This document shows positions 19,333 through 59,563 of a stretch of 64,000 nt of DNA, one piece after another; the first letter of the stretch is position 1; each line of letters begins with the position of its first letter. Both the position numbers and the translations under genes were made by a program. The stretch covers positions 40,109,020-40,173,019 of the forward strand of contig JAUZTB010000002.1 in assembly GCA_034780895.1 (NCBI GenBank), written 5' to 3'. The notes below the pieces were generated by a model, which saw nothing but the letters and a program-made list of their open reading frames with translations, was not told the origin of the DNA and searched no databases. The DNA is from Rhynchobatus australiae (taxonomy: Eukaryota).

Positions 19333-19729
19333 GTATGTTTGTTAAACTTTGAATGTCATTCTTGCTCTACAGTACTACATTACTTATTAACAGCATGTTT
19401 GGTTTCTGGAATCCTTCTTAAATGTGAAGTATATACTAAATACACTGGCAGATTATTGTTAAGCAACATATAATGTAATAAATTAAATGTTTTAATTGTT
19501 AGTAGTTTTAAAACTAAATGGTTTTTATCTTTCAAATATGTTAAAGGTGAATGCAATGTTTCACAGATTTTACAAAGTATTATTTTCTTGTAGATAATGT
19601 GTTTCCTGCTAATAGCTTTATCTCTAACACAGTGCTACTCTGGATTTAAGATAATTACATTAGTTCACACCTTCCTTCCCATCAGTATTCAAAAATTCTA
19701 TAAATACTTTACAGATCTGAACAACAAAC

Positions 19730-19829
19730 ATGGCTCCAAAAGAGGGTGGTGCAATTCTGTTGCTATTAACTGTTACCTTGGTCAATGGACTTGGATATTA
19801 TAGATATAATAATGCACACAGTCCCAATG
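19730..19829 (+). CDS. col10a1: Collagen X alpha-1-like copy A, first coding exon (signal peptide + NC2 start): MAPKEGGAILLLLTVTLVNG-LGYYRYNNAHSPN
   Basis: Acceptor tttacag|19715, ATG 15 nt into the exon, hydrophobic core ending LVNG (human LVHG), phase-1 donor G|gtaagt, in frame with the large exon at 28943. Confidence 0.9.
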
Positions 19830-22474
19830 GTAAGTGTTCATGTTGCAGTCACTGTGAGTTTTAATAAACCAAATCATTCAAAATGACAACATGGTGCCGC
19901 TCTATTGATGCTTCAGTGCTTTGTTTCTTGTTTCTGAACGATAGTTCCGGCAACTAATATTTAATTTTCATTTTCTTTCCAATTCCATACCCAAAGCTTA
20001 TTTTTCTATATCCTCTTTGTAAGACTCTCACATTGTGCATCACTAAATTGGGCGGTGAAACCTTTCAAGCTTCTGCTGATGCACTCTTCCAGACAGCATG
20101 GAATGTAAAAGGGTTAAGATTGACATGTTCTCCAATTTTCTGTCCCTCCCAAAGCCAAATACTTCACCAACTCCCCAGACAAATGGGATGAACCTGGGTC
20201 ACTCCCGTACAAACTTGCAGCCAAGCAATTACTGGCATAACATGCTGGTGCACTGCTTCATCAATCCACATCTTAATTCAAATTGTCTTTGTGAACATAG
20301 ACAATAGACAGATTAAATATTTGATCACCACTATTGCCAAATTACAAACAATAGGATATTATCCTTATGGATGAAGAATCCTAGGAACAGCTTTCTTTAA
20401 TGGACTATGTTAAGACTTTACAATTCTTATGATAAATAATTGCAAATCACAAAATATTAGTCTTTCTGCAGGCACTCTGTCATCATAGTGGCATATTTAA
20501 ACTTCACTAGCATGCATGATCTTCAACTGAACTATTTTTGAGAAATGGCAAAAGGCATAAGTTTGTGAATATTTGATACCAAATAAGATGAAATGTCAGA
20601 TAAATTCACAAGACAGAAATTAAAATAAATGAAAATGTGTATCTGCACAAATAATTTTTTCATCTATTTTTAATGTAAATTTCAGTTTGAATTCTAGCAG
20701 TTTTTAAAATGTGCATCAAAACTGGTATACTCATGTCAGAAAAGGGGAAAGCACTGCTTGGAGGATCAGCTGGCTGGTGTTGAATAATGAAAATAGGAAG
20801 TTAGATATTAAATGGTGATAGATTAGATAATGTTAGGTACTTTGAAGTTTGTATGGCTCAGTTACAAATTTTGTTTTCTAATGTGTGAAGTGCAATGGGC
20901 TGTTTTACAAGGTTAAAGATGCTACATAATGCAAATTGTTGTTGATGTACATAATCCATAGGAGAGCTGCTTTATTGCTTAAAACTAATCAGTCTAAACT
21001 AACTTAAACATAGCAAGTTACACCAAACTTGTTTAAAGTCAGATATGAATTGGTGGAAGTTAAGGGCCATGGACATTTACCGTAAATTTAATTGCACATT
21101 TAATTATATTTTAGAAGAACAAATGCCTACAATAATCTACATAGAAGACATTAAATGATATACAGACTATGAGGCCATGCTAAATGTGCAAATTCTTCTT
21201 AAAGTTGTAAATCATTGTCTCTTTCAGCAAGTTAATCCAGAATTTCTTTGGAATCCCACTAGCATTTCTTGAAATGTTAAAAATTACAAAATGGAACATG
21301 CTTAAAGGATTGTATTAAATGTGTGTGATATTACTTTTTACATCACTTATAAAGCATAAAGATTATTGAAAACCTCTAACTCTGAATAAACCCATGGACA
21401 CCTTTCAAATTTGGATGTAAATTATTCTTATGCACTAAGGGTTCAATCAGAGCTGCAGAAAAAATAATGTTGGCCTCAGTGGGAAGAAATAGTTTACCAA
21501 ATGTATATATAAAACAGAAATTCAAATTTATATCCCACTGCAGCTAAAATACATAGCAAACTCAGAACTAGTGTAAATTCAAAAACAATTCTTGTGAGTT
21601 GCATTTATCCTTGGAAAAGAAGTATAGAAGTAAAAAAGAACTATATAAAGAAAAAAAAACAGAGGATTTCCATAACTCAGGTTTCATAGAATCAGGACAA
21701 AATATCAATAATGTCACTAACATAGAATAGTACAGGCCTTACAGAACAGAACAGAACAGTATGGGCCCTTCAGCCTGCAATGCTGTGCCCGACTTACACC
21801 CAATGCTAGAACATTACATTCAATGTTCCAAGATTTACACCAAAGCAAAGTATAATACCGTAATTTTAACATTGTTTTCAGCAATTTTTTCAAGAAATGT
21901 TAGGCAAACAGCTTTTAACAATCATGAGGCCACAACTGAGGACAAAACAATGCAAGAAAAAAAACATTTTAGTGGCACTGATACATTCCCACTTAAAATT
22001 AAATTTCTGAACTTAAAATTGTCTTTCAATTACCTCCCCCATATAAGGCACCAGCAGAAAACATGATAAGCACAATGGACCATGATCACTGCTGACCATT
22101 TCATATTGATAATTTAGAATTGCTAAGATAACCTATTTGCAGGATGTAAAATGCAATGGTCGATCCCTTATCATTCATTCTTTATTAATATGAGTCTCCT
22201 AGTTTTTCCACATCCAAAAGATGTGCTGGTTTTTAGGTTATTAGGTTATTGTTAAAATATCTCTGGTGGAGGTGGGTGGTAGGAGAATCAGTTGGGGGAT
22301 GATGACTGTTGCATACAAATCCTTATTGTGAAAATTCTGAGTAGCATCAAGGGCAAAGTACTGAACATGGACCATTATCATGGGGGTAAAGAACTGAGTA
22401 CGACATTTGCTTATTATAAGGTGGCAAAAAAGACACAGCTCTAGTCGACCATTAACTATCATGGACATTGAGAA

Positions 22475-23090
22475 GCTGGTACTGGTTTATTATTGTCACA
22501 AGTACCAAGATACAGTGAAATGAGTTTTATTTCGCAGCCATTCAAACAGATTATGCTATACAAATGCACGTCAAGGTAGTCAAAAGGAAAACAGAATGCA
22601 GGATATAGTATTACAGTTACAAAGAAAGTGCAGTGCAGGTAGACAATAAAGTGCAAGGGCCACAACAAGGTAGATTGCGAGATCAAGAATTCATCTTTTA
22701 GCATATGACAGGTCCACTCAGGAGTGTGATAACAGTGGGATAGAAGCTGTCCTTGAGCCTGATGGCACGTGCTCTCAAGCTTTTGTATCTCCTGCCTAAA
22801 AGGAGAGAGGAGAAGAGAGAATGACTGAGGAGGGAGGGGTCCTTGATTATGTTGGCTGCTTTTCCAAACCAGTGGGAAGCGTAGACAGAGTCAATGGAAA
22901 GAAGGCTAGAGTGTGTGATGGACTGGGTTGCATTCATAAATCTCTTGGGCAGAGCAGTTGCCATACCAAGCTGTAAGGCATCCAGGTAGGATGCCTTTTA
23001 TGGTGTGTCTGTAACAATTGGTAAGAGTCATCGGGGACATGCCAAATTTCCTTAGCCTTCTGAGGAAACAGATGCATTGGTGTGCCATAA
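22475..23090 (-). mobile_element. Rex1/Babar-type LINE 3' part
   Basis: Minus-strand ORFs FLRRLRKFGMSPMTLTNCYRHTIKGILPGCLTAWYGNCSAQ and IIKDPS..HSLFSSL..GRRYKSLRAR..RLKDSFYP. Confidence 0.85.
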
Positions 23091-25368
23091 ACTTATACCA
23101 ATACCAAGCTGTGGTCCCTTCTTGGCCACATTCATCAGGGGCAGACATAGACGATCTATCTTGCTCTCCCTCTGCATCTTGGAAATGAAGAGCAGTGACG
23201 AGGTCTAAGGTAGTGCAAAGGCCCATCCCCAGAATGCCCTAATATGGTTTGACAGAAGGCAAAGCTGAGGGTGGGGCTTTGGTTTCTGTCAAAGCTGTGG
23301 GGAGTTTCAAAAAAACTTCCAGGACCCATTAAAATTATGTAAATTTTCTGTACAAAGTTAATTAAACAAATGTTACTGGAATTGTAAATCATTAAAAACA
23401 TTAAAGTAAAATGATTTTTAAAAAATTATTCTGTGCCCAATAATCACTACTGAAATGAATGATGTCTTCAACCGTACTTCAGCTGATAGTGAAGAGGAGA
23501 GGCAATTTCTAGTTTATCACTCAGTACCTCCAGCCATTGTTGTAAAATCTGTTACTCAATCAGTCCCAGACTAACATTGGTCCACATAAAACCATGACTT
23601 CCATTTGAGTTAATTAACTTGGGTATTTTCCTTTGGACANNNNNNNNNNNNNNNTGTCCCAAATGCTGTGCTATTTTGAAAAAAAAACAGGTGAATTAAA
23701 GAGGCAGGAAATCTACAAAACAATAAGTACCATGCAGGTATGAATACCTACAATGAGGTATCAGTTGCTAGTAATTAGTTATTGATGAAACAATTGACCA
23801 GAAGGAAAATAAACTATCATGGCAATAATGAAACAAAACAATTGTGCTTAAATTTAAGACACCCATTATTCTTAAGTACACTTCTAATTTAAATTACTTT
23901 GCAGTATTCCTTGTAGTAATCATTTTGGCTGATGCTCATGGCATCAACATCATGTGCAGTTCAGATAATAGACCTCAGACTTCCACCTGGGTTTTCCAAA
24001 TGAAGCCTTTTTCTCAAAAACTGTCCACCGAAGCAATGAGCTCCAATAAAGAATAAATGTAATCAAACATGCTATTATAATACAATTTTAATTTGGATGA
24101 CAGATATTCAACATTATTTAAAAATCATTGAGGTGTACCAATGTGTTTTGCAGTCTTTTTTTAGCTCAGTGAATGTGTCTGTCTAACTGTTGTTAAGAAA
24201 GAAAATTCTGTTAGTTCCACAATTGATTCATGAATGATGTCATTCCTCTGCTCATAATTGGTTAAATCTTCACCACATAGTGCTGACATGGCTTAGTTGG
24301 TAACAATCTTGCCTGAGTCAGAAGGGTGTGGTGCGTGCTCATGGTCAAAGCAGACAGTCCAGTGTAATGAATGTGGCATTGTCAGTGGTTAAGATATTTG
24401 GGCCTGTGCATTCAAATTCAACCCAAAGCATTGATTTTATTAAGAGGATAAAATAAAAACTAAAAAAACTTTAAACATGTTGTATGATCATTGCATAAGT
24501 ATGATCAATTAGATACTGGGCTACAGAAAAATAATTATTTAGTACAAACAACAAAATATGAATTAAACTGAATATCAATGGTAAGCTTGCTTTAATGAAG
24601 TAAAAACATAATTCCTATTATATAGCTAATATGGTCCATTGTCTTTTATAAGTAACAACATTTTTTCTTAAGTAAACTATCTGATTTTAAGCATAAGCAT
24701 AGATAAAATAAAATTCAGTGTTAGTACTTCTCATCATCAAACCCCTATATGGGTTCATTTTTTTTGATTTTTTTGTTTACTCTTACTCACATACAACTTG
24801 ATTAAAATCAGCACAATTTTATTTAGCAAGGCAGGGAAAAGCAATAAGAAAAGACGTGTCAGAATCTTCTACTAGAGAAGTGATGCAAATAATTTTGCAG
24901 GAGCAACCTTTAAGAGGAAAGGGAAAAACAACACAGAGTTCAGTGCAGAGAATCTATAGCTAGAAACTTTTTATATTTATATATTTTTATATTTAGAAAC
25001 TAATTATATTTTATATAATTAAATTATTAATTATTTCTTCAATTTTGTCAATATAACATTTTATTACCCTCTTGAAGCTTGAACACAAATCAAAAATTGC
25101 CTTGGCAAGCAGAAGTTCTACTCTTTTTAATAAGGTACTAAGTACAAACTCTTACTGCAACATTCGCTGCATGCGTGCAACTGAGAGAATTTTAACCATC
25201 GCAATTTACAGAATTTCTTCTTCACTAGGGACAACATAAATTATTACAGGACAGCCAAAAGATCACTTGCGGCAATCCTTCCGCTAGTGTGCTCTTGTAT
25301 GAACCCAAAGTAACGAATGAAAATATTCGTTAAAGTTCCATTGTGATTTGTTGACTTTTCCTAAACAG

Positions 25369-25440
25369 GTCAGCGAAATATAGATCGAAGTTCTGAAAGC
25401 TCGGAAGAAAATCGAGTGTCTACTTTCTCTGTCCCCAAAG
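25369..25440 (+). CDS. col10a1: Candidate extra coding exon of col10a1 copy A: (G)QRNIDRSSESSEENRVSTFSVPK, SxE phosphoserine cluster
   Basis: Acceptor ttgacttttcctaaacag|, donor AAG|gtgaga, 72 nt, phase 1-1, no stop in the frame set by the flanking exons, non-random SSESSEE motif. No transcript evidence available. Confidence 0.7.
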
Positions 25441-28199
25441 GTGAGAAGTAGGCTTATATTACACAGAGAATTGCATTGTCCATCATTAATTCTCAATAGA
25501 ATCAAGATTATTGTAGGGGAATAAGAAATCTAATTTAGTCATGTGATATGTTTTTGTCCCATCTACACCCATTATACCCTTAATTTGTTATTAAACTTCC
25601 CTATCCATTTTACTCACTTCTTAATGAGTCCTTCATGTTAACTTTCCAAATGAGTGTGCTGTGCCACTTATCACTGTGGTGTTGGGTAAGCCATTTTAAA
25701 CTCCAACTTCCGAGCTTCCCATTGCCACTATCAGTTTGCTGCCATCTGTAAATTTATCTTCCCACAGACACCAGTTTCTCTTTTCACAATTAGACCTCTG
25801 ATTATCAAACACAATCACTGTTATTCTGAAGTCTCAAAAAAAAATCTCTCTCCACCACTGTGATTTGCCCCAACCATCAAAATCAGCTGACAAATTCTGA
25901 ATTGAATCAAGGCTACATTGTTCCTGGTTGCAAAATGAGGGAAGTCTGGTCAGAGCTGAATGGGGGATAAAAGTCCAGTATTAGTGAGGTCAGTATGCTT
26001 TGACACTAATGGGAAAAAATTCATCCCATTGAGAAAGCATAGGATACCACCCCATTTACTCCTGCACATCCAACCATACCTAAACTGTGGACCAGTTTCA
26101 TAATAAAACAAAGCACAAGTCAGCAGCAACCTACTATCTACTTTAATGCTTCCCTAGGGAAAGAATTCAGCTATTCAGACAATAAGCCTGATCCACCAAT
26201 CAATTAGACCATGGCTGATCTGTTTCTCAGCTTCATTTACTCTCATTGCTTTTTATCTACAGATCTTCCTCCATGCAAACTCTCAGTGTATTGATCCACT
26301 TGTTCTAGAGTCTAAATCCAGAGTCTAAAGCATTTTGGAGAAGATTATTCCTGATTTCCAGTTCCCCTTGTGTGAAGTCATGCTTCCTGACATTACCCTA
26401 AAACAATCCATGGCTAATTTTAAGATTGTAATCCTTTGCTCTGGAATCTCTTACCAGTTTCTTTCTAAGTACTCTATTAATAAATCATCATAAACATTAG
26501 ATTGTACTTCAGTTTTCCACAGTCAAGAAAGTGCAGGCCTAGCCTCTCCAACGTCATAATAAATTAATACTTTCAGCCCTCCACCACCCCCCCCCCCCCC
26601 TCAAGCAATACTACTACTCCTCATAACCTTGCAATCTAGGAACTTTCACATTACAACAATACCTCCCCCAATCCTTTCATCAACATACTGTTGCAATAAC
26701 AGCTATCACTTACTGATAATCCAGCTCAAAATTTTTGGAACAACCTCCTTGTTAACTACACCTTTACATTCTATATTCTCTCTCTACCTCTCTCTCATTC
26801 AACAATCAACCCTATGGGGAGCTCCATAAATAGCTACTGTTAGTCATTTGTTACAATCTCAGTATTGGACATGGTTCATGTTGTCATGTTTGTTTTACCT
26901 TTGGCTTAAATTATACTGTGAAAACAAATAAAGCCACAAATGATTAGTTTCCACATCAATATCTGTATCAAATGTTGAGAACTTCTTTATTCTCCTAAAC
27001 CCTCTGTAAGTTTATGGATCATTTGAAAGACAGAGCAAAAACTCCCAACAGTAATTAAAAAGCACAGTGAAACATGAAATCTGAAATAAAAACATAAGAT
27101 TCTGGAGATGTCTGCAGAATCTCCAGCAATTTCTGTTTTTGCTGTACCATGTAGCTTTGGACAAGTGACAGTCTGAAAGGGACAGAGAAGTAATAGGACA
27201 CAGGAACTCAAATGGCTAAAAGTAATCACAGCATCATATAAACAGCAAACCAAGTACTGGAGCTCATTTTGACAGATGTCAAAAATCAGAGAACTTAGGT
27301 TGAAATTTTATCATTTAGATGGCACTGAGAGCAAAAGGCAGTCTTCCAATCATCATATTATAACAAGAAAATGAAATCTTTGAAGGAGGTACAAAATAAT
27401 TTACAAGGACGATACCAGAACTTGAAGATTATACACTATCGAGAAAACTGAGCAGACTAGGGCATACTTGTCTACAGAGGAAAAGTCTGAAAACTTACCT
27501 GGCAGAGACTGGGTAAACGTGGAGAAGTTTCTTTTGCTGATGGTTGCAGAAATTAGTTCCTGGACTTGTTGCCAGATGCACAGACTATAAATCTCGAGAT
27601 TCATGTAAATGCAAGTAATTAAATAAACTAGTAATAAAAACCAAACATCAGGCATGGTGGTGGCAATGAAACCATTGTAGTATTGCAAACACCTATTTGC
27701 TTTACTTATGCCCCTGAGAAAAGGAAATCTGCCAACATTATGCAGTCTGTGACTCCAGTTCCTGAGTATTGTAATTCACTCTTAATTGTCCTTTGAAACA
27801 GCTTAGCAAACTATTCAGTTTAGAGGCATCCAAGAGTGAACAATAACCAACAATTATGAAGTGAACAAGTGAAACAAAAACATGTGAGGTAGTCCAAAAT
27901 TAGGAACAATAAATATAAAATAAAGACAATATGGAATTCAGGGGAAACTTTTTGTCCAGTGAGTTATAAAAATATGGAATTCACGGGAAAGCTAGATAAG
28001 TGGAGAAGCAAGACGTTGTGGCCTGCTTCTGCTGTACCATTGTTGCAACAATTTAAGCAAGGTACTAGCAGTAAATCATGGGCACAAGTGGGAAAAGTAA
28101 TCACAATATGATGAACTATATAAGGGAATAAAAATATTAGCTTGGTACACAAACTTAATCTATGGCCTGCTGCAAATTTTCAATCAATGAAGTACTTAT

Positions 28200-28515
28200 T
28201 GCTATATTGTCGTGGGTGTTATACTGGAAATAAAGAAGGCAATTTGTGCACAGCAAGTCTCTAAAAATAGCAATGTTGCAATGACCAGGTATTCTAATAA
28301 TTGAGGTATAACTATTGCCCAAGACATCTCTTGATCTATTCTGAGAAAGTATAATGGATCTTTTACATCCACCAGAAGAGATGGGCTGGTCCTCTGTCCA
28401 ATGTCATAGCTAAATGAAGCCACCTCTGACATCCTGGCAATCCCTCAGCGTGACACTATAGTGTCAGCCTAGACGTTCGTGCCCAAGTATCCAGAGTGGA
28501 ACTTGATCTCATAAG
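28200..28515 (-). mobile_element. Deu-domain SINE (SacSINE1/AmnSINE1 superfamily)
   Basis: gcaatttgtgcacagcaag...atggatcttttacatccacc...cacctctgaca..tccctcag..gtgtcagcctaga..agagtggaacttga matches the reverse-complemented DeuSINE body and tRNA-derived head. Confidence 0.7.
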
Positions 28516-28942
28516 GAGGTATACAAACCTGGCATTATTATGTAATTCATTCTACATGTAAAAATTTGTGAACCCAAATTTTGAACATATTAAACACAAT
28601 TTAATTCTATTTCAAGGATTTGTTCTTTGCTAAAAAAACTGAAGAATTAGCTCAAGTTCTTTGAATACACTTACTCACCCCCCATTATTTTTCATAAAGC
28701 TTCCAAATATCTGCTTGTTTGCCAGTATAGCTCATGATACTAAACTGCTAATTTTTGTAAATATGAAAAAAAATCATAATCAGCTTCACATTATTGGCCA
28801 TTTTTTATTCATCTTTCAAAATGTACATCCTAGAAAAATAAAGGGTAATATTGAAATCAGTTCAACGCTTATAATGAAGCACTATATAATATAAATACTA
28901 ATACCATAATCTAAACCAGATCTCTTCATTTTGTGTTAACAG

Positions 28943-30777
28943 TCAGATGGTATCGAGGGCCAGCAGGTCCACCAGGACAACGTGGTCCACCAGGCCCACC
29001 AGGATACCCAGGAAAATCAGGTGCCGGAGCTCCAGGACCACCAGGTCAACCAGGGCAGCCAGGTCCACAGGGGCTACCAGGCATGGGGAAGCAGGGTATT
29101 CCAGGAGCACCAGGAAAGCCAGGTGAAAGAGGGTATCCTGGACCAAAAGGGAGCATGGGACCTCTTGGCATGCAAGGACAGAAAGGTTTACCAGGTCCAA
29201 GAGGATTTCCAGGGCCAAATGGATTGTCCATTCCTGGTAAGCCGGGTGCACAAGGGCCGCCAGGTGCTTCAGGACCAATAGGTCCACCTGGGGAAAAAGG
29301 AGAACCAGGGTACCCTGGTCTAATTGGTGCAAAAGGAGAAAAAGGAACTGGAATACCAGGGCGTGCAGGAGAAAGGGGCCCTCCGGGACCACCAGGACCA
29401 CAAGGAATTCGTGGTGAATCAGGATATGGAAAACCAGGAGCCCCGGGCCTTCCTGGCAAGCCAGGAGAAAAAGGTGAAAAAGGCTTAGCAGGTTCACCTG
29501 GATACTCTGGTGCACCAGGTCAAAGAGGACCGCCTGGGCTACCTGGACCACCAGGTATTGGAAAGCCTGGAGTGGATGGCACACCAGGGTTACCAGGACC
29601 TCCTGGACGCCAGGGTCCCTCTGGTTCCCAAGGCTCACCAGGTGAACCCGGACTTCCTGGTTTTGGAAGACCAGGCCCACCAGGACTTAAAGGGGACACA
29701 GGTTCACCAGGCCCTGCCGGATATCCTGGAGGGAAAGGAGAAAAAGGTGCCCCAGGTAATACAGGAGCTTCTGGACTTTTATGGCCATCCGGTCCACCTG
29801 GGCCTCAAGGTCTACGTGGTGCACCTGGTGCACCGGGTGCACCAGGAGCTAAAGGGGAACGGGGCTCAGCAGGTGCTCAAGGATATCAAGGACAAAAGGG
29901 TGAGACAGGTCCTGGGGGTGCCCCAGGTAAATCAGGAATTCCAGGAGAACCTGGTCTGCCTGGGCCAGAGGGTCCAAGGGGACCTCCTGGCCAAAAAGGT
30001 GCCATTGGACCCATTGGGCCACCTGGAGAAACAGGTGAAACTGGTCCTCCAGGTCTTACAGGGCCACCAGGATTCTCAGGTGAAGTTGGATTGAATGGAC
30101 CCCCTGGACCTCCAGGTTTAAGAGGACTGCCTGGTTACCCAGGTCCTCCAGGATTCCCTGGAGAAAAAGGAGATCCAGGATCTCCAGGGCCACCAGGACC
30201 ACCAGGTCTTTCTTCCAGCTTCCATGAGAAGTTACCTCAAGGACGACCGGGCCCTCCAGGCCCAGAAGGTCCACCAGGTCCACCTGGGCCCCCTGGTGCA
30301 CCAGGGCCTCCAGGGGAAGGTGCACATTCAGGAAAGTATGGGGGCTACAATGGTTACATCATGCCAGGAGTCACAAATTCATATCCAGCTTTTACGGCCA
30401 TTCTTTCAGAATCCTTTCCAGCAGCCCAACAACCTATAGCATTTGATAAAGTACTCGCCAATCAAAATAATGATTATGATCCTTCAACTGGAATATTTAC
30501 ATGTAAAATGCCAGGTATCTATCAATTTACTTACCATTTACAAGTCAAAGGAGGAAATGTTTGGGTTGGACTGTTCAAAAACAATGAACCTATAATGTAC
30601 ACATATGATGACTATACAGAAGGTTATGTTGATCAAGCCTCAGGAAGTTCTATAATACACTTACGTGAAAATGACCAAGTTCATGTTGAGTTACCTTCAG
30701 CTGAGTCCAATGGCTTATATTCTTCTGATTATATGCATTCATCCTTCTCAGGATTTTTAATTAGTCAAACTATTTGA
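28943..30777 (+). CDS. col10a1: Collagen X alpha-1-like copy A, large terminal coding exon (triple helix about 28957-30321, C1q/NC1 about 30385-30774). Full protein 644 aa, or 668 aa with the 72-nt exon
   Basis: Acceptor ttaacag|tc in phase 1; about 455-aa Gly-X-Y domain with 8 interruptions in a single exon; NC1 PAFTAILS...[46 protein letters not shown]...[17 protein letters not shown]. Short NC2 and SSxY(V/M)H favour type X over type VIII. Confidence 0.95.
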
Positions 30778-31843
30778 TGCACATCAATCATACTGGCAAT
30801 TCCCCCAGCCACCCGCCATCACCCACAACCATCCCACCTCCAACGTAGCGGCGAGTTGTTTATACATGCTCGCGGAGTCCCAGCAATTCACACAGAATAC
30901 TTTAAAAAGGCTTCACGACTAAAATGTTTTGGGTCTCTTGCAGGACACCATAGGGAAACATGGCACGTTTTCCACCCACCATCTACCCAGGGTGGGCTCT
31001 GGTTGAAACTCATTTCAAAAGTGCTTTATCGAACTGTCCCATTACTATCTCTGGTGAAATGGCAGTAAGGTTTCTCACCGTGTTTGAGAAAGTTCATGGA
31101 AAATACATTGCAAAATACATATCTATTGCCCACTGTTTCTAAGGAAATTTAGTGTCATTCACTCATCTCCATCCTACCAAAGAAAGACAGCGGAGAATTA
31201 CCATTATTTCAAATAACTTAGTTAAAATGTATTTCTTCAAGAGTTTATAATGATCTATCACATAATGGTTTACTTGACTAACTGATCAATGCTTATTTTC
31301 GTCCACATCAACATCAAGCATTATATCCCTTCAGATGGAACCTAGAGGTATTTTCCAAATAATTACAACATGCAGCCATTTCTCATGGTAGCAAAAAAAT
31401 AAGAGAACCCATTGTGTCACAGTGAATTATCTTTAAAGTAGCAAGTGCAAGTTTTGAGAAATATACTGTCAAAAAATTGAACAAACTAGATTTTTCATAT
31501 TATGTTGTCTTAAACTGAAATATCACAATATAAATGCAATTTTTAAAGAAAAATTCATACTTTTCTGTTTTCCACACAGACCTACTCAAAGCCAATCTGC
31601 TCCACACCAATAATTATCTTAAAGATTTGACAAATTCTAAAATTAATTATTCCACAATTAAATCACAGAGAGGTGCTTTGGATAAGAGAGTTCCTTCTCC
31701 ATTTCCAAAATAACAGGAAGCAACTGGCAATATTGTACAGTAAAATATGTTGAACCTTTTTTTATAAACCCGAGGCCTTAGAAACTGTATCAAAATGCAT
31801 TAATAGCCACAAAGCATTTTATTATTTCAGAATGTGTATATAA

Positions 31844-47326: not shown

Positions 47327-49829
47327 GTAAGTTTTTCATCTCATATGGAAACAACTATATGAGATTGCTGTGATTTACACTAATTAAAAGATGCACCAAT
47401 TTTGGCTACTGTACTTTGTAGTATAGCCCAAGTTGAAGTTACTAGTTTACTGTCAATCTGGGTGATATTTTTGTTTTTAATTTTACGTATGATGAAAATT
47501 AGTGAAAATGGTTCTTCACTCCGCCTTTGCTCAAATAAACTCGTAGGCAAGGCACATACAAATACAGCTCATTCAACTTCTAATTTACCTATTCTCATCA
47601 AAAGCATCTTCTGATCTCCAAAAAATGACTTGAATTATATAGAATAACTTCACTTATATACACCTTTTGCAGTCCAGTTGCTGTGAGTTCAGTGATTAAT
47701 GCCAAATACAATCAATGCCTTCATTTCACTTTACAGCAGGTGATCAACCCATAGTATTTTTCTTTAAAATTTCCTAATTCTACAAAGTGCATCCCTACTT
47801 GCCTTGCCAGTGGTGGCAAACAGTTGCTGCTTAAAATTAAAAAGTTAAAAATTAAAATTAAAGTGGGACACTTTTAATTTGCCCTCTGGGCATTCAAGCT
47901 CAGGAGAGTTTCACCGCATGTTTCTGCATGTACCTGGTGGGGAGGCATCAGGCCTAAATGACTTGCTGGGACTACCGCAAATATTGATTTTGTAAGAGGA
48001 GGGACAAATGTGCTGAAGAGCTTACATACTGACAGAGTTACACCCACTGCACCGATGTTGCTCCCTTGCTGATGAAGATCATCATTTCTTCCGGTATGCA
48101 TGACAGATAATGGTCAACTCCCTTCAAAACTCCTTCACTGTATAGCCAGGGCAGCTATCTAAACTACCAGGAATGCTGAACAGCATGCAAGTACGATTCC
48201 TGTGGGCAACCAAGTAATGAAGCCATGTACTCATTTGCTTGTTCTCTTTCTCCACCATCATCCATTCATGACAATGTTTCCTAATATCCTTCATGATATC
48301 GCTGGATCCAAGTAGGCAATTTAAAAAAAACAACTTGCTTAGGATTATTCAGGCATTTTATATCTCAACCAAATATCTGAGGCTACAAAGCAATATCACA
48401 GAGGCTTGATGTGGTGGCCACACACAACCAAGTGGTAAAACTTCTTGGCCTGTCCTTCAACATCTTTTACCACTATTTTTCTGAGGCCTCCATATTTTTT
48501 TTCTTGTCCTGAGCTCTCAGAGACTTCACTCCTGCATTCCATAAAAAAAAGAGTCCCACATTCGCCAATGAAGTTCCTCGTGGGCTGTATCTGCCATTTG
48601 TATCTTCTGCTGGATATTGGTGCAAGTTGCTTCAACATGCCTTAGAACATTTTAAGTCACCTAGAATGTGCTGGTATCTGATCTGATACCTGGAAGAGTG
48701 GGTAACCTGACAGTATATTGGAAGACTTTTATTTACGTAGTTTGACAATGGATTCCACTTCTCAGAGTTATGTTCTTTTGTAGAACTCCCTTTCCTAAAA
48801 GAAAAATCAAGTAGAAATTCCAACCTCATGTTAAGTATAGTCAGGAAATTCACTACAATGGCAGACTGTCCAATTCTTTGTGTGACTGGTAGGACAACTT
48901 GTCCTTAAAATGTTAATGAGCGTCATTATTTAAAGTGACCCATGCCTCAGGCTAGCAACATTGTGGAGGCTGGTTTCATCTTTTGGGGCCTTTCTTTCAG
49001 AAAGTAGTATTTTCCTGAATGAAGGACTTTGAACATTTTATTTAGATTTGGAAAGTAGTCTGTGATAGTCCTGCAAAAAGAGCGTATGGCATCATGTTAA
49101 CTTAGGCTCAGCAAGTCAGTAACAAGCAAAGGAGATATTATCTCAAATATCATCTATCTAAGATATCTAGAAAGACGCACTGTGAAGTTCATTTTCCTAG
49201 AAATGTTACTAGTATTAAGAAAGTGTGATAATCTTAAGCCTAAATTTTAGCCAAAAGATTAACATAGATGACCTGGCAATAAGTACTTGTGCTCATTTTT
49301 GTGTATCACAGCCTGGGAGATATTTCTTTTCCCACCCCAGTTTTTCAGTCCTCAGGTATTTACTTTTGACTTAGTCACACAGAACAGCCTTTACATCTTC
49401 TGAAAATCAGTGGAATCAGTGGGAAAATCAGTGGGCTAGACAGCAGGATGAGGTATTTGTAAGATTCCAACAAGTGAGTTGCTTACTGGGCAATATTAAA
49501 AATGTCAAAGATGGAGAAGAAGAGTCTGTTTTAAAATCACAACAAAAAAGCAAAATGTATAATGGTTGCAAGATCTTCTTTTGAGGGCAAAAATATATTT
49601 GCATTCTTCCTTTCCAATATATTTTTATAAAGTTTTATATCAATCTGAAATAATTTTATATTAACCAATATTTACATACAACAAAGGAAATAATGTGTTA
49701 ATATGTTGAAATGCATGTAACCTTAAAAACTCCCAAGATTCAGATGCTACATTTCAGTTCTTTATTCAGAAATGTAATTATATTGTGCTAGCTTTCATTT
49801 AACTTAAAATGTGCTTTACCATACAGGTT

Positions 49830-51030
49830 ATGAATTAAAAGGGCATCAATACCAGAATCTTGAAGATAATGCAAAGGGTATCATGGGTAAGGAACAACAA
49901 TGTTTAAAGGAAGATGAATATAAATCTTTTACTTTTATGGAGCTGTGGAAATTCTTTGTTCAAAAATTGTAAGAAAATCAAGCAGAAAAATTTGATTTCT
50001 TGAAAAGGACATGGTGTTTGACAAGTTTACTAGAGTATGTTGAAGATGTAATAAACAGGGTGGGTGATGGGAACTGAGTGGATATAGTATATTTGAATCT
50101 CCATAAGGCATTTGATAATGTGCCAATAAATGTTACTGCACAGGGTAAGGGTGCACAAAGTTGTGGGTTATAAATTTACTGGGATTGTCATTTGACTAAT
50201 TGACAGAAAATCAACAGAGAGTCAGACATAAATGGGTCATTTTCAGATTGGCAGCCAGTAACTAGAGGCTAGCAATGAGACCTCAACTACATACTATCTA
50301 CGTTAATGACTTGGATGAAGGGACCAAGTGTAGTGTGGCCAATTTTGCTGAAGGTACAAAGATAAGTAGATTAGCAAGTAGTGAGGACGCTAGGTCTGTA
50401 TAGATGTTAAGCGAGTGGGCAGGAAGTTGGCAGTTAGAACATAATGTGGGAAAATGTGATGTTATCATTTTGGAAGGAAGAATAAAACAGCAAATTACTT
50501 AGATGGGATGAGACTACAAAATGCAATGGTTCAAAGGGATCTGTGGTACATTGAACACAAAAGGTTAGCACAAAAGTACAGGGCACAGGAGAGACCACAT
50601 TCGGAGTACTGCAAACAGCTTCGGCCTCCATATTTGGATTGTGGGCAGTGCAGAGAAGGTTCACAAGTGAACCATATGAAGACAAGTAGAGTCTACACTC
50701 ACTGAAGCTTAGAAGAATGAGAGGTGATCCTATTGAAATATAAGAGATTCTGAGGGGGAGTTGACAGGTTGTATACTAATAGGGTTTTCACTGCTGGGGT
50801 TATCCAGAACTGGGTGCCACAGTTTCAGAAAATGGAATTGTCCATTTTGGACAGAGGTGAGGAGGAGAGTAACATATCTTTGGAATTTGCTACCTCAAGG
50901 AGCTGTTAAGGCAGTCATTAAATATATTCAAGGTGGAGACTGAAAGAATCAGCTATGATCTAATTAATTGGCAGGGCATTCTCAAGGAGCCAATTGGCTG
51001 CAACTCCTGTCTTTATTTTATGTTCTCCAT
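49830..51030 (+). mobile_element. CR1 LINE remnant
   Basis: aatgacttggatgaagggacc..ttttgctgaaggtacaaagata (NDLD..FA..TK), agaagaatgagaggtgatc, 3' tail ctcctgtctttattttatgttc. Confidence 0.7.
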
Positions 51031-51399: not shown

Positions 51400-52410
51400 T
51401 TAAATTGGTAAATTGGTTTATTATTGTGACATGTACTAAGGTACAGTGAAAAACTTTGTCTTGCCTGCCATCCATGCAGATCATTTCATCACATCAGTAC
51501 ATTGAGGTAGTACAAGGGGAAAGCAATAACTGAATGCAGAATAAAGTGTTACAGTTACAAAGAAAGTTCAGTGCTGACAGACAATGAGGTGCAAAGCCAT
51601 GACGAGGTAGATTGTGAGGTCAAGAGTCCAACTTATCATACAAGGGGACTGTTGGACTGTTCAATAGTCTTATATCAGTGGGATAGAAGCTGTCCTTGAG
51701 CCTGGTGGAACATACTTTCAAGCTTTTGAATCTTCTTCCTGATGAGGGGGTGGGGGGCAGAGAAGAGAGAATGTCCAAGGTGGGTGGGGTCTTTGATTCT
51801 GCTTGGTGCTTTACTGAAGCACTGAGAAGTATAGACAGAGTCCATGGAGGGGAGCCTGGTTTCCATGATTTGCTGAGCTGGGTCCACGACTCTCTTCAGT
51901 TTCTTGCGGTCACAGGCAGAGCACTTGCCATACCAAGCAGTGATGCATCCAGATAGGATGCTTTCTATGGTTCATCTATAAAAATTAGTGAGGTCAAAAG
52001 GCATATGCAAATTTCTTTAGCTTCCTGAGGAAATAGAGGCGCTGGTGTGTTTTCTTTGCCATGGCATCTACACAGTTGGACAAGGACAGGCTATTGGTGA
52101 TGTTCACTCCTAGGACTTTGAAGCCCTCAACCCTTTTGACTTCGGCACTGTTGATATAAACAGGAGCGTGTGCGCCACCCCGCTTCCTAAAGTCAATGAC
52201 CAGCTCTTCTGTTTTGCTGACATTGAGGGAAAAGTTGTTGTCATGGCACCATGCCACTGTGGTCTGTATATCCTTTTTGAACTCTAATTCTTCATTATTG
52301 GAGATTTGGCCCCCTACAGGGGTGTCATCTGCAAACTTGTAGATGGAGTTAGAGCAGAATCTGGCCACGGAGTCATGAGTGTAAAGTAGGGGGCTGAGTG
52401 TCCACTGACT
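51400..52410 (-). mobile_element. Rex1/Babar-type LINE, RT C-terminus to 3' end
   Basis: LSPLLYTHDSVARFCSNSIYKFADDT..LNVSKTEELVIDFRK..FKVLGVNI..KKTHQRLYFLRKLKKF; same family as 22475-23090. Confidence 0.9.
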
Positions 52411-55400
52411 ACCAACAGCAACATTACACTGTACAAATTTACTAAATGTCAGAATTCCCAAAGCCAAGAAGGCTAGGGATCACAGGTTTTATGTGCTCCA
52501 CTATCTACACAAGTCAGAAAAGAAATGCACCTTGGAATGACCATTCAGTTAATTTTTGAAAGGTTAACGAAAATTATTTTTTGTTTCAGACAGCTATCAC
52601 ATTAAAGGCAATCCAAAGTACCATTAATCGTTTACTTAAAAATACAAGTGCCTAATTGTTTCCAGGGCAACAAAGATATAGCCTGGAACCATGGCTCATG
52701 ATACCTCAGTGATCTTCCAGGACACCATCCCTGAAAATATACCCTGCCTAAAATCACAAAAGACAATCACTCCGAGTCCAATGCATTTTTGTCCTCATTT
52801 CCCTGATCTCTCCATGATGTTTGACAGATCAAATATGCCATCCTCCCTCACTGCCTCTCCTCTTATCCAATTCCATTAGATTGCCTCACTCTTCCTTAAA
52901 TGTACTCATCACATTTTCAATTGATTTTCTTCTACCATCATAGTCAACCCTGGATTTTCCCAAGGATGTCAGCCTGGCTCCCACCCCCTTATGTAATTAT
53001 CCACAGGAATGGATATCATCAGCCACTGTGTACGCTGACAACAAACATATGTACCTGCGCAGAACTTGTCTACACCACATCATTATCACCATGCTGTTAT
53101 AAGTGTCTGACATCAATTTGCGGAAAAATCAGTTTCTCTTTTAATTGAATGCTGAATCCACTGAAGGCTGTTCTCTGTTGCCAAAGATTCCATTGCTCCC
53201 GCTGGCCAGACTCTGAGGCTGAATCAGACAGTTTTATAATCTTGGCATCCTGTTTTACCCAGGCTGAATCTCAAACCACATACCATATTTATCAAGACCC
53301 TGCACCCTGCTTCTTACTGCACACCTCACCTCTCCTGCTGCTCAAACTCTCCTAAATGCTTTCATCACTTCTAAATTCAAAGTGAGGATGCTTAAACACA
53401 GGTGAGAGAAATGCAGACTGACCTTCAAGCTTTGGGCATTGGTGAATCCACACATACCATGGTGAAGAATAATGCGTTAAATAAACATCCTGCAAGGCTG
53501 TGTACTTATGGCTAGCTGACTCACCAGTAAACTGCTCACCATCACAGTTCAGCTTCTGCCAGCCCTACTTGAGACAAGAAGTTATCATAATCTTAATCCA
53601 TGCATGGACACAAGAGCTGAATATCATAGGAAATGTCAAGGCAACAATTACCAAGTACAGTGCAAATAGCTCCTATGAAAACTAGTAAATATAGTAAATA
53701 AGCATCTTTTTAAAAAATTCTTCATTGACTGGAATTTTACACAACCTGAGAAAAGGGTTGCAGTTGTTAAAAGCCAGTCATCACTGCTCTGGCAATATTA
53801 CTTCAGGAATTCTTCACTAGAGGGTCCTTATGCCAACCATCATCAGCTGCCTTCATTCATGACTTTCTGTCTGATAGGAGTGTAGCTGTTGGCTGACAAT
53901 ACTATTGTATTCATCTCAGCCACCAATTCCAGTAAAGAAACAACCTATGCTGATAAACAACAGGATAGTAACAACATCCAAAGTTGGGTCAATAGATGTG
54001 ATGAATTTTATCTGTTTCTAAGTGCCAGACATCGACCATGTCCAACAAAAATGCCAAATAATGTCTCACTGACCTTCATCTGCACCACTATTATCATATC
54101 TCAGCACTGAACCTGTGGGGCCAGAAGGTTATCTGGATCAGCCACTTTAACATTGTAATGACAGAGGACAGGCAAGATACATTAAAATAAGTAATTTGCT
54201 TTTTAGTCTCTCAAAGACTTCACCATCCACAAGGCACAAGCCAGAAGTTTGAGACATATTCAAGATGCTCAATATTATTCACATTGGGCCTGTTTACTGG
54301 ATTGACCCCACTCACTATGATGTCCAATACGGGAGGACTGCAGCTCCAGCATGCATAGTCTTCAACAATTTCTGTGTCTTTGGGACTATCACGGGAAAGC
54401 TTCTTGAAAAAAATACTGCTACTAACTGTATCCTATACTTAATGGACATATTAAATATGATTTAAGGCAGTATGAAGAAAAGAAAATTATAATTGCCAAG
54501 GATGGTTAGTGCACTAAGTTAATGGAAGTGCGTTCCTTTCCTTTGGCTGACCTTGTAAAGTCACCAAGTGTTCATTCATTTCCTCCAGATATATGATACT
54601 TTGTAATGGTGGCTGCATTGGTTGGCATCTCCTGCTACTCCTATTTGACAACTTCTCTATGGACCCCTCAGTAAACGGCCCTGAATAGAGTCCTCCAGCA
54701 TCTCACTACATCTGTCATAATTCCTGACCAAATGAAGAAAGCAGCACTTTTTGACCTTCAACGGCAGACCCTTTTTTGGAACTTTGAGTTCCTGTTTATG
54801 TCAGAAGAGGTTGAAATGAGTGTTACACAAAAACTGATGTCAGTAAAGTTGCATCTGATGCTGGGAAAACTTTGGGTAGTAGCCAGAAGTGCTCCGACAA
54901 ATTACGTAATTGATGTTATTTCACCTTTTTATTTAATGTCTCTAATTATGAAGGTTAACACTTCAAACTTTTTGATTATATTTGTACCTAATCACTACAT
55001 TTTAGTGCAACAAACAATCTGCTGGAGGAACTCAACGGGCTGAGCAGCATCTGTGGTGGGAAACCCTGCATCAGGGATAAAAATACTACAGGACTAAAAC
55101 TAAGACTAACTACAAAGGACTACTAGTCCACTACATTTTATGCAGGACCTTCAAATCTTTTTGTTTCTCCTTCAACTTTGAGCTAAAAAAGATGAATTGG
55201 TCTTTCTGGTTCTGGTCCAATATGAATGATCTGAAATTTTGCTGTATGGAAGTCCATCTGCTGCTTAATCTATAGACACCTCTTCCTAATTTTATGTTCC
55301 CAGTATACTACCAGTCATTGCATAATTGGCATGGGATATCAGGGTCTCTATTGCATTAGCCAGACAATTAATACATTTTAGTTTGTGTAAATAAGTGTGG

Positions 55401-57731: not shown

Positions 57732-59563
57732 TGAGCGGAGATCCAGGGTTACCTGGACCACCTGGACCTCCAGGACCACCAGGACCCCCAGGCCAAGCAG
57801 GATATCCAGGCAAGCCAGGTATTGGGCTGAAAGGAGCTCCTGGCGATCCAGGACAACCAGGACCACAAGGACTCACTTTAAAGGGTGCTCCAGGCATTCC
57901 AGGATCACCAGGACAGCCAGGAAGAATAGGATATCCTGGACCAAAAGGTGATCCAGGAGTTCAAGGGATACAAGGGCAGAGAGGCAGTCCAGGGCCTCCA
58001 GGAAATCCTGGACCAGCTGGATTGTCAGTTGTTGGAAAACCAGGTCCACCAGGGGCATCAGGATCTCCAGGCGTACCTGGATTACCTGGAACAAAGGGAC
58101 ATCCAGGTTATCCTGGTCCTGCTGGGCCAAAAGGGGAAAGAGGAATTGGTATCCCAGGGCCTGCTGGTGAGAAAGGACCTCCAGGTTCCCCAGGGTCACC
58201 AGGAATCCCAGGACCAGTGGGATTAAGTGCACCTGGAGCTCCTGGTCGCCCTGGGGAACCAGGTAAGAAGGGTGCAATTGGACCACCAGGCCCATCTGGT
58301 TTCACAGGTGCACCAGGTCAAAAAGGGCCACCAGGTCTACCTGGACAACCTGGAATTGGAAAGCCTGGAGTGAATGGTTCACCAGGATTACCAGGGCCCC
58401 CTGGTTTTAAAGGTCACCCTGGCTTACAAGGTTTGCCAGGGGCACCAGGCTTGCCAGGTATTGGAAAGCCAGGTGATCCAGGATCCAAAGGAGAACCTGG
58501 TCCAGTTGGTTATACTGGATATCCTGGAAAGAAAGGAGAGATGGGACCAATTGGGAAACCAGGACCTCCGGGATTAATGGGACCAGCTGGTATACCGGGA
58601 TCAGAAGGCCTCAGAGGTTTACAAGGAATTCCTGGCTCACCGGGAATGAAAGGGGCACCAGGGCACATGGGTATACAAGGCTACCCAGGATCAAAGGGTG
58701 AGAGAGGACCAACTGGTAGCCCAGGTATATCAGGACTTCCAGGAAAACCAGGTTCAACAGGTCTACCAGGACCAATTGGACCTGTGGGTCAAAAAGGTGA
58801 TCCTGGGCTTACTGGTCCATCTGGTAAATCAGGAAGCCCTGGTGCTCCTGGCCCTCAAGGTCCATTAGGTTTTCCAGGTCCAGTAGGTCTGAGAGGACCT
58901 GCGGGAACACCTGGTCACAAAGGCTTGCCTGGTTTGAAAGGTGCACAAGGGCTTCCTGGAAAAGATGGTGCTCCAGGAGCTCCAGGACTACCAGGACCTC
59001 CAGGCATTGTTAGCAGACAATTAATCAAGGGGTCACCGGGTGCACCAGGTCAAAATGGAGCAGTAGGCCCTCCAGGTCCACCAGGTCTTCCAGGCCCACC
59101 AGGTTTACCTGGTGAAATTTATGTCCAACCAGAAAAATCTGTACAGCCACCACCTGGATTATTAAGTCCTGTTCCAGCTTTTACAGCCATTCTATCTCGG
59201 CCATATCCACCAGTAGGTCAACCAATTATGTTTGACATACTAGTGACCAATTCAAATAACAACTACAATCCAGCATCTGGTGTATTCACATGTGAAATAC
59301 CAGGGCTTTACCAATTCAGTTACCATGTACAAATCAAGGGGGCAAGTGTCTGGGTTGCATTATATAAAAATGGAAAACCCATCCTACAAACATATGATGA
59401 TTACACAACAGGGTATGTTGATCAGGCTTCAGGAAGTATTATAGTACACCTACATGATAATGACCAAGTCTATGTATTGCTACCTTCAGAAGAAGCCAAT
59501 GGTTTATATTCATCTGATGAGAAACAGTCATCTTTCTCAGGATTTTTGATTAGCCCTTCATGA
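57732..59563 (+). CDS. col10a1: Collagen X alpha-1-like copy B, large terminal coding exon (triple helix about 57737-59119, C1q/NC1 about 59174-59560). Full protein 646 aa
   Basis: Acceptor ctttctaccttcacag|tg in phase 1; about 461-aa Gly-X-Y domain with 8 interruptions in register with copy A; C1q domain ending [11 protein letters not shown]. Confidence 0.95.

Follow-up and report, generated by a model that had tools for sequence, protein, structure and literature searches.

Introduction

The closest described relatives of the locus reported here are the chondrichthyan duplicates of the type X collagen gene. Debiais-Thibaud et al. 2019 (PMC6759074) recognised six elasmobranch and five holocephalan Col10a1 duplicates and mapped the exons of all six copies in the thorny skate. 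They described a short domain, 'S/D S/D DSSEE', between the signal peptide and the helix of Col10a1.2. At the same place Col10a1.5 was found to have an SE domain resembling that of DMP1, for which they proposed convergence with the SCPPs, and Col10a1.4 a further acidic motif. The Col10a1.2 motif is given as common to the species studied. In the passages of that paper cited here, the motif is not described as an exon of its own and Fam20C is not named; the word-start 'phosph' occurs twice in the paper, and the passage shown has it within the name of a protein family.

The expression of Col10a1.2 is known to us from catshark embryos only. There the gene is active in tooth and scale ameloblasts, at the secretory as well as the maturation stage, no vertebral signal was seen by in situ hybridisation, and the 7 TPM found in vertebra RNA-seq were blamed by the authors on contaminating scales (PMC6759074). 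According to the same passages, Col10a1.4 alone marks endoskeletal mineralisation, none of the duplicates was detected in Meckel's cartilage at that embryonic stage, Col10a1.3 is also expressed in teeth, and Col10a1.5 is expressed in odontoblasts. Fam20C targets S-x-E/pS in secreted proteins. In catshark, ameloblasts of both stages express fam20C (PMC9122587). These are the cells and stages that express Col10a1.2, so transcripts of kinase and candidate substrate occur in the same cell type.

Two further systems invite comparison. The SCPPs (caseins, DMP1, SPP1, and the elasmobranch scpp of Leurs et al. 2022, PMC9122587) share with Col10a1.2 secretion, clustered S-x-E and ameloblast expression with fam20C, but differ in their sparc-L locus and phase-0 introns, whereas Col10a1.2 has phase-1 introns and joins the cluster to a collagen helix and C1q. 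SxE has also accumulated on unrelated folds in other mineralisation proteins of cartilaginous fish, namely the Spp2 duplicates (cystatin-like) and Sparc-L (Kazal/EF-hand; PMC13188829, PMC9122587). Osteichthyan COL10A1 likewise combines a signal peptide and a short NC2 with a helix and C1q encoded by a single large last exon, and it is syntenic with Frk, as Col10a1.2 may be too. It is a single-copy gene, however, and in mouse it comprises three exons, of which exon 3 is the last. In mammals two of the COL10A1 exons are coding, and we know of no SxE cluster in the NC2.

Here we follow up a sequence-only reading of 64,000 nt from Rhynchobatus australiae (contig JAUZTB010000002.1, 40,109,020 to 40,173,019; hereafter the window), which proposed that a 72-nt exon hidden in a collagen X intron encodes an SCPP-like phosphoserine cluster. 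The Col10a1.2 motif, its paralogue and the SCPP analogy are already known, and our addition at this level is modest, namely an exon-level map.

Results

A six-copy Col10a1 array and the gene model of copy A

We found six tandem Col10a1 copies on contig C2 at 40.14-40.36 Mb, designated A to F. By resemblance to the published rows, their order is.2,.3,.4,.5,.6 and.1: copy B matches the Col10a1.3 rows by eye, and C to F resemble.4,.5,.6 and.1. Copy F is the most divergent and the last, and it falls outside A-E, with weak support, in a C1q tree of this genome. About 70 kb beyond the last copy, an SH2 exon pair on the + strand (C2:40425984 and 40434281) is consistent with Frk. Type X collagen genes lie nested in intron 6 of Nt5dc1; for this neighbour, a PF05761 search gave 25 matches, 0 of them on contig C2, and this model may miss NT5DC1 exons.

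Copy A encodes a signal peptide, a short NC2, a Gly-X-Y helix and a C-terminal C1q domain, the architecture of a type X collagen. Its position in the six-copy array and its SSESSEE motif, with one conservative D>E change, identify it, as judged from sequence, as Col10a1.2, the first of the six tandem copies. By eye, its N-terminus matches the published Sc/Rc/Rt Col10a1.2 rows, its signal peptide and helix start match the Sc/Rc/Rt/Le rows, and its NC2 matches the catshark probe; the helix gives the impression of resembling the published skate rows. The features of the gene are as follows.

19715 to 19829, + strand: signal-peptide exon of Col10a1.2, with ATG at 19730, 100 coding nt and a phase-1 donor
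25369 to 25440, + strand: middle coding exon of Col10a1.2, 72 nt, phase 1-1, 24 codons of NC2
25386 to 25412, + strand: conserved core RSSESSEEN, the published 'S/D S/D DSSEE' motif of Col10a1.2
28943 to 30777, + strand: last exon of Col10a1.2, with 5 NC2 residues, triple helix, C1q/NC1 domain and stop
28945 to 28956, + strand: R-W-Y-R just before the helix, fitting the minimal R-x-x-R proprotein convertase pattern (putative) and identical in catshark

The acceptor of the signal-peptide exon (19714/19715) is inferred from sequence, and its end at 19829 is supported by a joint in an RNA-type contig. The last exon matches PF01391 and PF00386.

The 72-nt segment stands out in its intron

All the structural particulars proposed for the middle exon were confirmed on the sequence: its coordinates, its length of 72 nt, its acceptor (..CCTAAACAG/G), its donor (AAG/GTGAGA), its AG/GT boundaries, its phase 1-1 and its open frame. 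With it, copy A encodes 668 aa without an internal stop. The frame is also kept when the exon is skipped, so that frame alone proves nothing. On a generic splice-site score, however, the segment ranked 1 of the 285 open phase 1-1 AG..GT segments in the 9.1-kb intron of copy A, at 10.4 bits against 3.7 bits for the runner-up, and under a stricter filter it was one of two that passed among 103 segments. Four Fam20C-type serines per 24 codons occurred in only 5 of 28,717 overlapping open windows elsewhere in the 64-kb window. The match within the intron is thus more than expected by chance. With the exon, and with signal cleavage estimated by eye, NC2 of copy A has ~41 aa, near the 38 aa of human NC2; it would have ~17 aa without.

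Spliced joints in RNA-type contigs of a relative

We placed sequencing-run contigs on positions 19500-31000, using four of the seven runs listed. Two probable RNA runs of a related organism (X1 and X2) contain 21-28% of the sampled last-exon words. Their RNA nature is the tool's guess, for which the support here is intron-free coverage: X1 and X2 have zero depth across most non-repeat (single-copy) intron bins, whereas the DNA run X4 covers all 30 bins, the pattern expected of RNA. An X1 contig of depth 446, which covers 28941-31000, carries the joint 19828>25368, i.e. 19829>25369 with the GT..AG cut one place to the right, followed by a joint 25437>28941 with one G between. We interpret the latter as the joint 25440>28943 combined with an A>G substitution at position 25438 (Lys>Arg). 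The first joint, 19829>25369, is also present in X2 at depth 3.9.

The junctions that the sequence-only reading put forward as a check are therefore found in the relative's contigs, 19829>25369 in both runs and 25440>28943 in X1. The skipping joint 19829>28943 is absent among the 15 joints shown; a further 386 rows are hidden and contigs drop rare forms, and minor skipping of the exon may occur. Of the DNA runs, X5 has zero cover over the exon bin, and X4 has 11 differences within 25298-25636 whose positions are not placeable.

These joints, together with a catshark cDNA probe and the top splice score, bear out the proposal of a spliced coding exon: the 72-nt segment is a real exon, the middle coding exon of Col10a1.2, and it is probably constitutive. 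That it is merely a chance AG..GT segment has practically no probability left: no RNA run of this exact species was listed, but the relative's spliced joints, the 72-nt catshark cDNA segment and the splice score largely refute it.

A conserved SxE core shared with catshark

In the catshark Col10a1.2 riboprobe cDNA, the corresponding position is occupied by a segment of 72 nt (24 codons) that encodes RSSDSSEEN (supplement of PMC6759074). Compared by eye, the copy A exon shares 11/24 residues with it. The identity is concentrated in the core, where 8/9 residues agree (RSSESSEEN vs RSSDSSEEN) and the codon changes comprise four synonymous and one conservative (E/D), while only 3/15 residues of the exon flanks are identical. 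Since core and flanks differ so widely, selection appears to be focused on the SxE motif. Conservation of the exon across species draws on the catshark cDNA, the contigs of one relative and the consensus given in PMC6759074. Copy A is the same paralogue as the published Col10a1.2, with the same motif between signal peptide and helix and the same 24-codon length as catshark, but with E in place of D at the third position, by which the first serine of the core becomes a direct S-x-E.

Three serines of the core are direct S-x-E sites and the fourth fits solely as a primed site (S-x-pS), so the earlier count of four Fam20C-fitting serines stands in full only when priming is allowed. The unphosphorylated exon peptide has a net charge of 0; its acidity would therefore need phosphate.

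Database searches for the exon and its gene gave little. The 23-aa exon peptide had no match in Pfam, DMP1 included, and the other exon peptides submitted to Pfam were likewise assigned to no family; in its own genome the copy A peptide matched only itself at E<=10. In the protein database we found no full-length shark Col10a1.2: the C1q region had 3 matches of 98 candidates, the helix region retrieved other collagens among the 120 listed, and the signal exon gave 0/19. A representative protein search returned a single mis-fused Heterodontus model (XP_067876004.1, collagen alpha-2(IV)-like), in which middle exons were sought within the stretches displayed. This model joins a retroelement fragment to two Col10a1 paralogues, a misannotation of the cluster in that genome. 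Exons as short as these readily go unnoticed, the sole shark Col10a1 model retrieved being a mis-fused prediction. Among the literature matches listed, none besides PMC6759074 dealt with the motif of Col10a1.2 or with the exon that encodes it; subscription papers or genome annotations may show the exon, and both the multi-species Col10a1.2 motif of PMC6759074 and any exon drawing in its Fig. 1 could bear on the exon-level claim.

Middle exons in the paralogues

Predicted phase 1-1 middle exons were found in every copy except F, i.e. in five paralogues, with lengths of 72 nt in A, 60 nt in B, 72 nt in C and 117 nt in E. In catshark the.1 probe joins the signal exon straight to the helix, as predicted for copy F, and the predicted C and E exons resemble catshark cDNA probes (supplement of PMC6759074).

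47218 to 47326, + strand: coding part of the signal-peptide exon of Col10a1.3 (copy B), with a phase-1 donor
49827 to 49886, + strand: predicted middle exon of Col10a1.3, 60 nt, phase 1-1, rank 1/481, without SxE
57732 to 59563, + strand: last exon of Col10a1.3 (helix and C1q), matching the Sc_Col10a1.3 row by eye
L002:6839-6910: predicted acidic middle exon of Col10a1.4 (copy C), 72 nt, rank 2/483, Glu/Asp-rich, net charge -8
L006:5328-5375, L007:7033-7107, L007:9252-9326, L008:2-76, L008:771-845, L008:3160-3237 and L008:5738-5827: predicted phase 1-1 exons of Col10a1.5 (copy D)
L010:2304-2420: predicted acidic middle exon of Col10a1.6 (copy E), 117 nt, rank 1/293, GND-S repeats, net charge -10

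The sequence-only reading had found no counterpart in the intron of copy B, which is probably wrong. The 49827-49886 segment is similar to the.4 and.5 middle exons (p 0.002 and 0.0005) and has a blastn match to the 48-nt exon of.5 (E 4e-4), and it carries LEDN where its siblings carry SEEN/SEEE. Copy B thus probably has a counterpart exon that lacks SxE.

Copy D is predicted to have at least four near-identical 75-nt exons (RRSSEE) as well as 48-, 78- and 90-nt exons, and ~6 kb of its intron is N. The exon peptides resemble the published ray Col10a1.5 repeats, and the Col10a1.5 SE domain seems to consist of phase 1-1 exons that were duplicated in tandem. A further partial copy of the repeat exon lies near L007:4644-4691. 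Col10a1.2 shares with the.5 SE domain and the.4 acidic motif a Ser/Glu/Asp-rich NC2 insert, in.4 and.5 on predicted phase 1-1 middle exons with SEE motifs, but.5 has at least four 75-nt exon repeats and is odontoblast-expressed, while.2 has one exon and is ameloblast-expressed. For Col10a1.6, the text of PMC6759074, in the passages cited, names no acidic domain.

The middle exons of B, C and D are mutually similar (p 0.0005-0.05 for the best pairs). The E exon matched no sibling middle exon, and for the A exon none of the comparisons with its siblings stayed significant once corrected for multiple testing (best uncorrected p 0.022 of 8 comparisons). The idea that the 3' end of the signal exon gave rise to the middle exon found no support (best p 0.026 of 54 comparisons). 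Position, phase and motif nevertheless suggest a single origin of the middle exons.

In copy C, we also observed an in-frame TAA near the C1q start (L002:8687-8689; C2 ~40191706), which reflects either a mistake in the assembly or a genuine loss of function.

Discussion

The novelty claimed for the exon does not hold, since the motif in Col10a1.2 and, for Col10a1.5, the convergence with SCPPs and DMP1 are already in PMC6759074; nor is the module confined to a single duplicate, given that acidic or Ser-rich NC2 segments occur in.2,.4,.5 and.6. What the present data add is the exon-level map, the link to Fam20C through co-expression, and a serine-less natural control (Col10a1.3). They also confirm, by splice evidence in a further lineage, the presence of SCPP-like Ser/Glu clusters in the collagen X duplicates of sharks and rays, and provide an exactly defined small substrate for the study of chondrichthyan enameloid mineralisation without bony-fish enamel proteins.

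How might the cluster work? We consider it rather probable, from the motif and its expression, that NC2 is phosphorylated by Fam20C and forms a collagen-tethered calcium-phosphate-binding patch in forming enameloid. In this scheme, Fam20C in the Golgi would phosphorylate the three S-x-E serines and then the primed fourth. The exon peptide, which carries no net charge beforehand, would thereby make the short NC2 arm at the N-terminus strongly anionic, with up to 12 phosphoserines per trimer if the protein is a homotrimer. The secreted collagen X network would present these patches in the forming enameloid, where they could bind Ca2+ or calcium phosphate and help to position or restrain apatite growth. 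Several points weigh against the mineral-patch reading. The cluster is a single short motif and does not come near the SE domain of.5 in size; and according to a review, chondrichthyan enameloid mineral begins in tubular vesicles and its crystals show no concentration along fibrils (PMC12120383), which makes a role in fibril templating less likely. In addition, human collagen X has been reported as dispensable for ossification in an iPSC model.

Would such a patch make Col10a1.2 an SCPP? The exon has clustered S-x-E Fam20C sites (three direct and one primed), as SCPPs do. Both introns of copy A are in phase 1, however, where SCPPs have phase-0 5' introns (PMC9122587); the exon lies within a Col10a1 gene in a Col10a1 array, not at a sparc-L/SPARCL1 locus; and instead of a D/E-rich protein without a folded C-terminal domain, the peptide has net charge 0 and is fused to a helix and C1q. 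We therefore place the exon product outside the SCPPs, on account of its phase-1 introns, its unrelated locus and its fusion to a collagen helix and C1q, although it may function in the manner of an SCPP cluster. On the same grounds of intron phase (1, not 0) and locus we reject an origin from an SCPP exon. The patch would thus act like an SCPP phosphoserine cluster that arose independently of the SPARC-L/SCPP family. The role as an SCPP analogue that had been suggested for the exon is plausible in view of the Ser/Glu core and fam20C co-expression, with phosphorylation and mineral binding as its inferred parts.

Among the other explanations, the one that survives best, though we judge it unlikely, is that the serines are phosphorylated but serve secretion, solubility or assembly, e.g. 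through Ca2+-bridged NC2-NC2 contacts that set the spacing of the network, rather than mineral control. Fam20C phosphorylates most secreted phosphoproteins, many of them unrelated to mineral; the cluster is a short one; and.3, likewise expressed in teeth, has a predicted exon without SxE. Against this, four paralogues of odontodes or mineralising tissues have acidic or Ser-rich segments at this same position.

About equally unlikely, and perhaps a shade more so, is that the NC2 module is released. ASARM-type peptides of SIBLINGs are soluble crystal-growth modulators; by analogy, a furin-type convertase would cut after R-W-Y-R and free a ~40-residue phosphopeptide as a soluble modulator of crystal growth, leaving a bare collagen X network. 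The RWYR immediately before the helix is identical in catshark, whereas the preceding six residues are poorly conserved, and in copy E (.6) a basic KR stands at this NC2/helix border. Copies B, C and F, on the other hand, have no such site at the border, and none of the literature matches listed reported that NC2 is processed. An R-x-x-R motif that lacks a basic P2 is, moreover, a weak convertase site. The tethered patch remains the reading that we prefer.

It is improbable that the exon acts chiefly in tesseral (endoskeletal) cartilage mineralisation. The 7 TPM for Col10a1.2 in catshark vertebra RNA-seq (PMC6759074) could be taken in its favour, and Col10a1.2 might compensate for Col10a1.4 if the in-frame TAA at the C1q start of the latter is real. 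But.2 was not detected in vertebrae by in situ hybridisation, the 7 TPM were ascribed to scales and.4 is the only endoskeletal marker in the passages of that paper cited here, and the Col10a1.4 stop may be an assembly error. The sequence-only reading had named tesserae, denticles and teeth as sites of action: ameloblasts of teeth and scales are supported by catshark.2, and the tesseral part is not supported, with no signal by in situ hybridisation in vertebrae and none in Meckel's cartilage of catshark embryos.

More improbable still is that the exon is real but a neutral spacer, with its serines unphosphorylated or unimportant. Its flanks do diverge fast (3/15 identical to catshark), but the core is conserved at 8/9 residues with mostly synonymous change, and the motif is shared across the species of PMC6759074.

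At the level of the whole array, we tentatively put forward a history that is possible but on balance doubtful, drawn from position, phase and motif. One phase 1-1 phospho-module exon would have entered collagen X NC2 once, in stem chondrichthyans after the split of Col10a1.1, and then been tuned in each duplicate: SSESSEE would have been kept in the ameloblast gene.2, the serines lost in.3, the module made Asp/Glu-rich in.4 and.6, and amplified to at least four tandem 75-nt exons in the odontoblast gene.5, while the.2 module may be cut at RWYR as a free enameloid phosphopeptide. If this were true, the array would hold an exon-level dial of phosphate charge, independent of the phase-0 SCPP toolkit.

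Other features of the window

Three further observations concern the surroundings of the exons. The intron of copy A contains a very high-copy repeat at ~22480-23070 of the window, where depth in the DNA runs is orders of magnitude above the flanks; the repeat is also found in the RNA-type runs. In the intron of copy B, an open reading frame on the - strand at 51994-52479 looks, by eye, like a fragment of a LINE reverse transcriptase with a YADD-like 'FADD' motif. Finally, the X1 contig has 5867 nt and continues through 30778-31000 of the window to ~3.6 kb beyond position 31000, which implies a long 3' UTR of Col10a1.2 in that relative.
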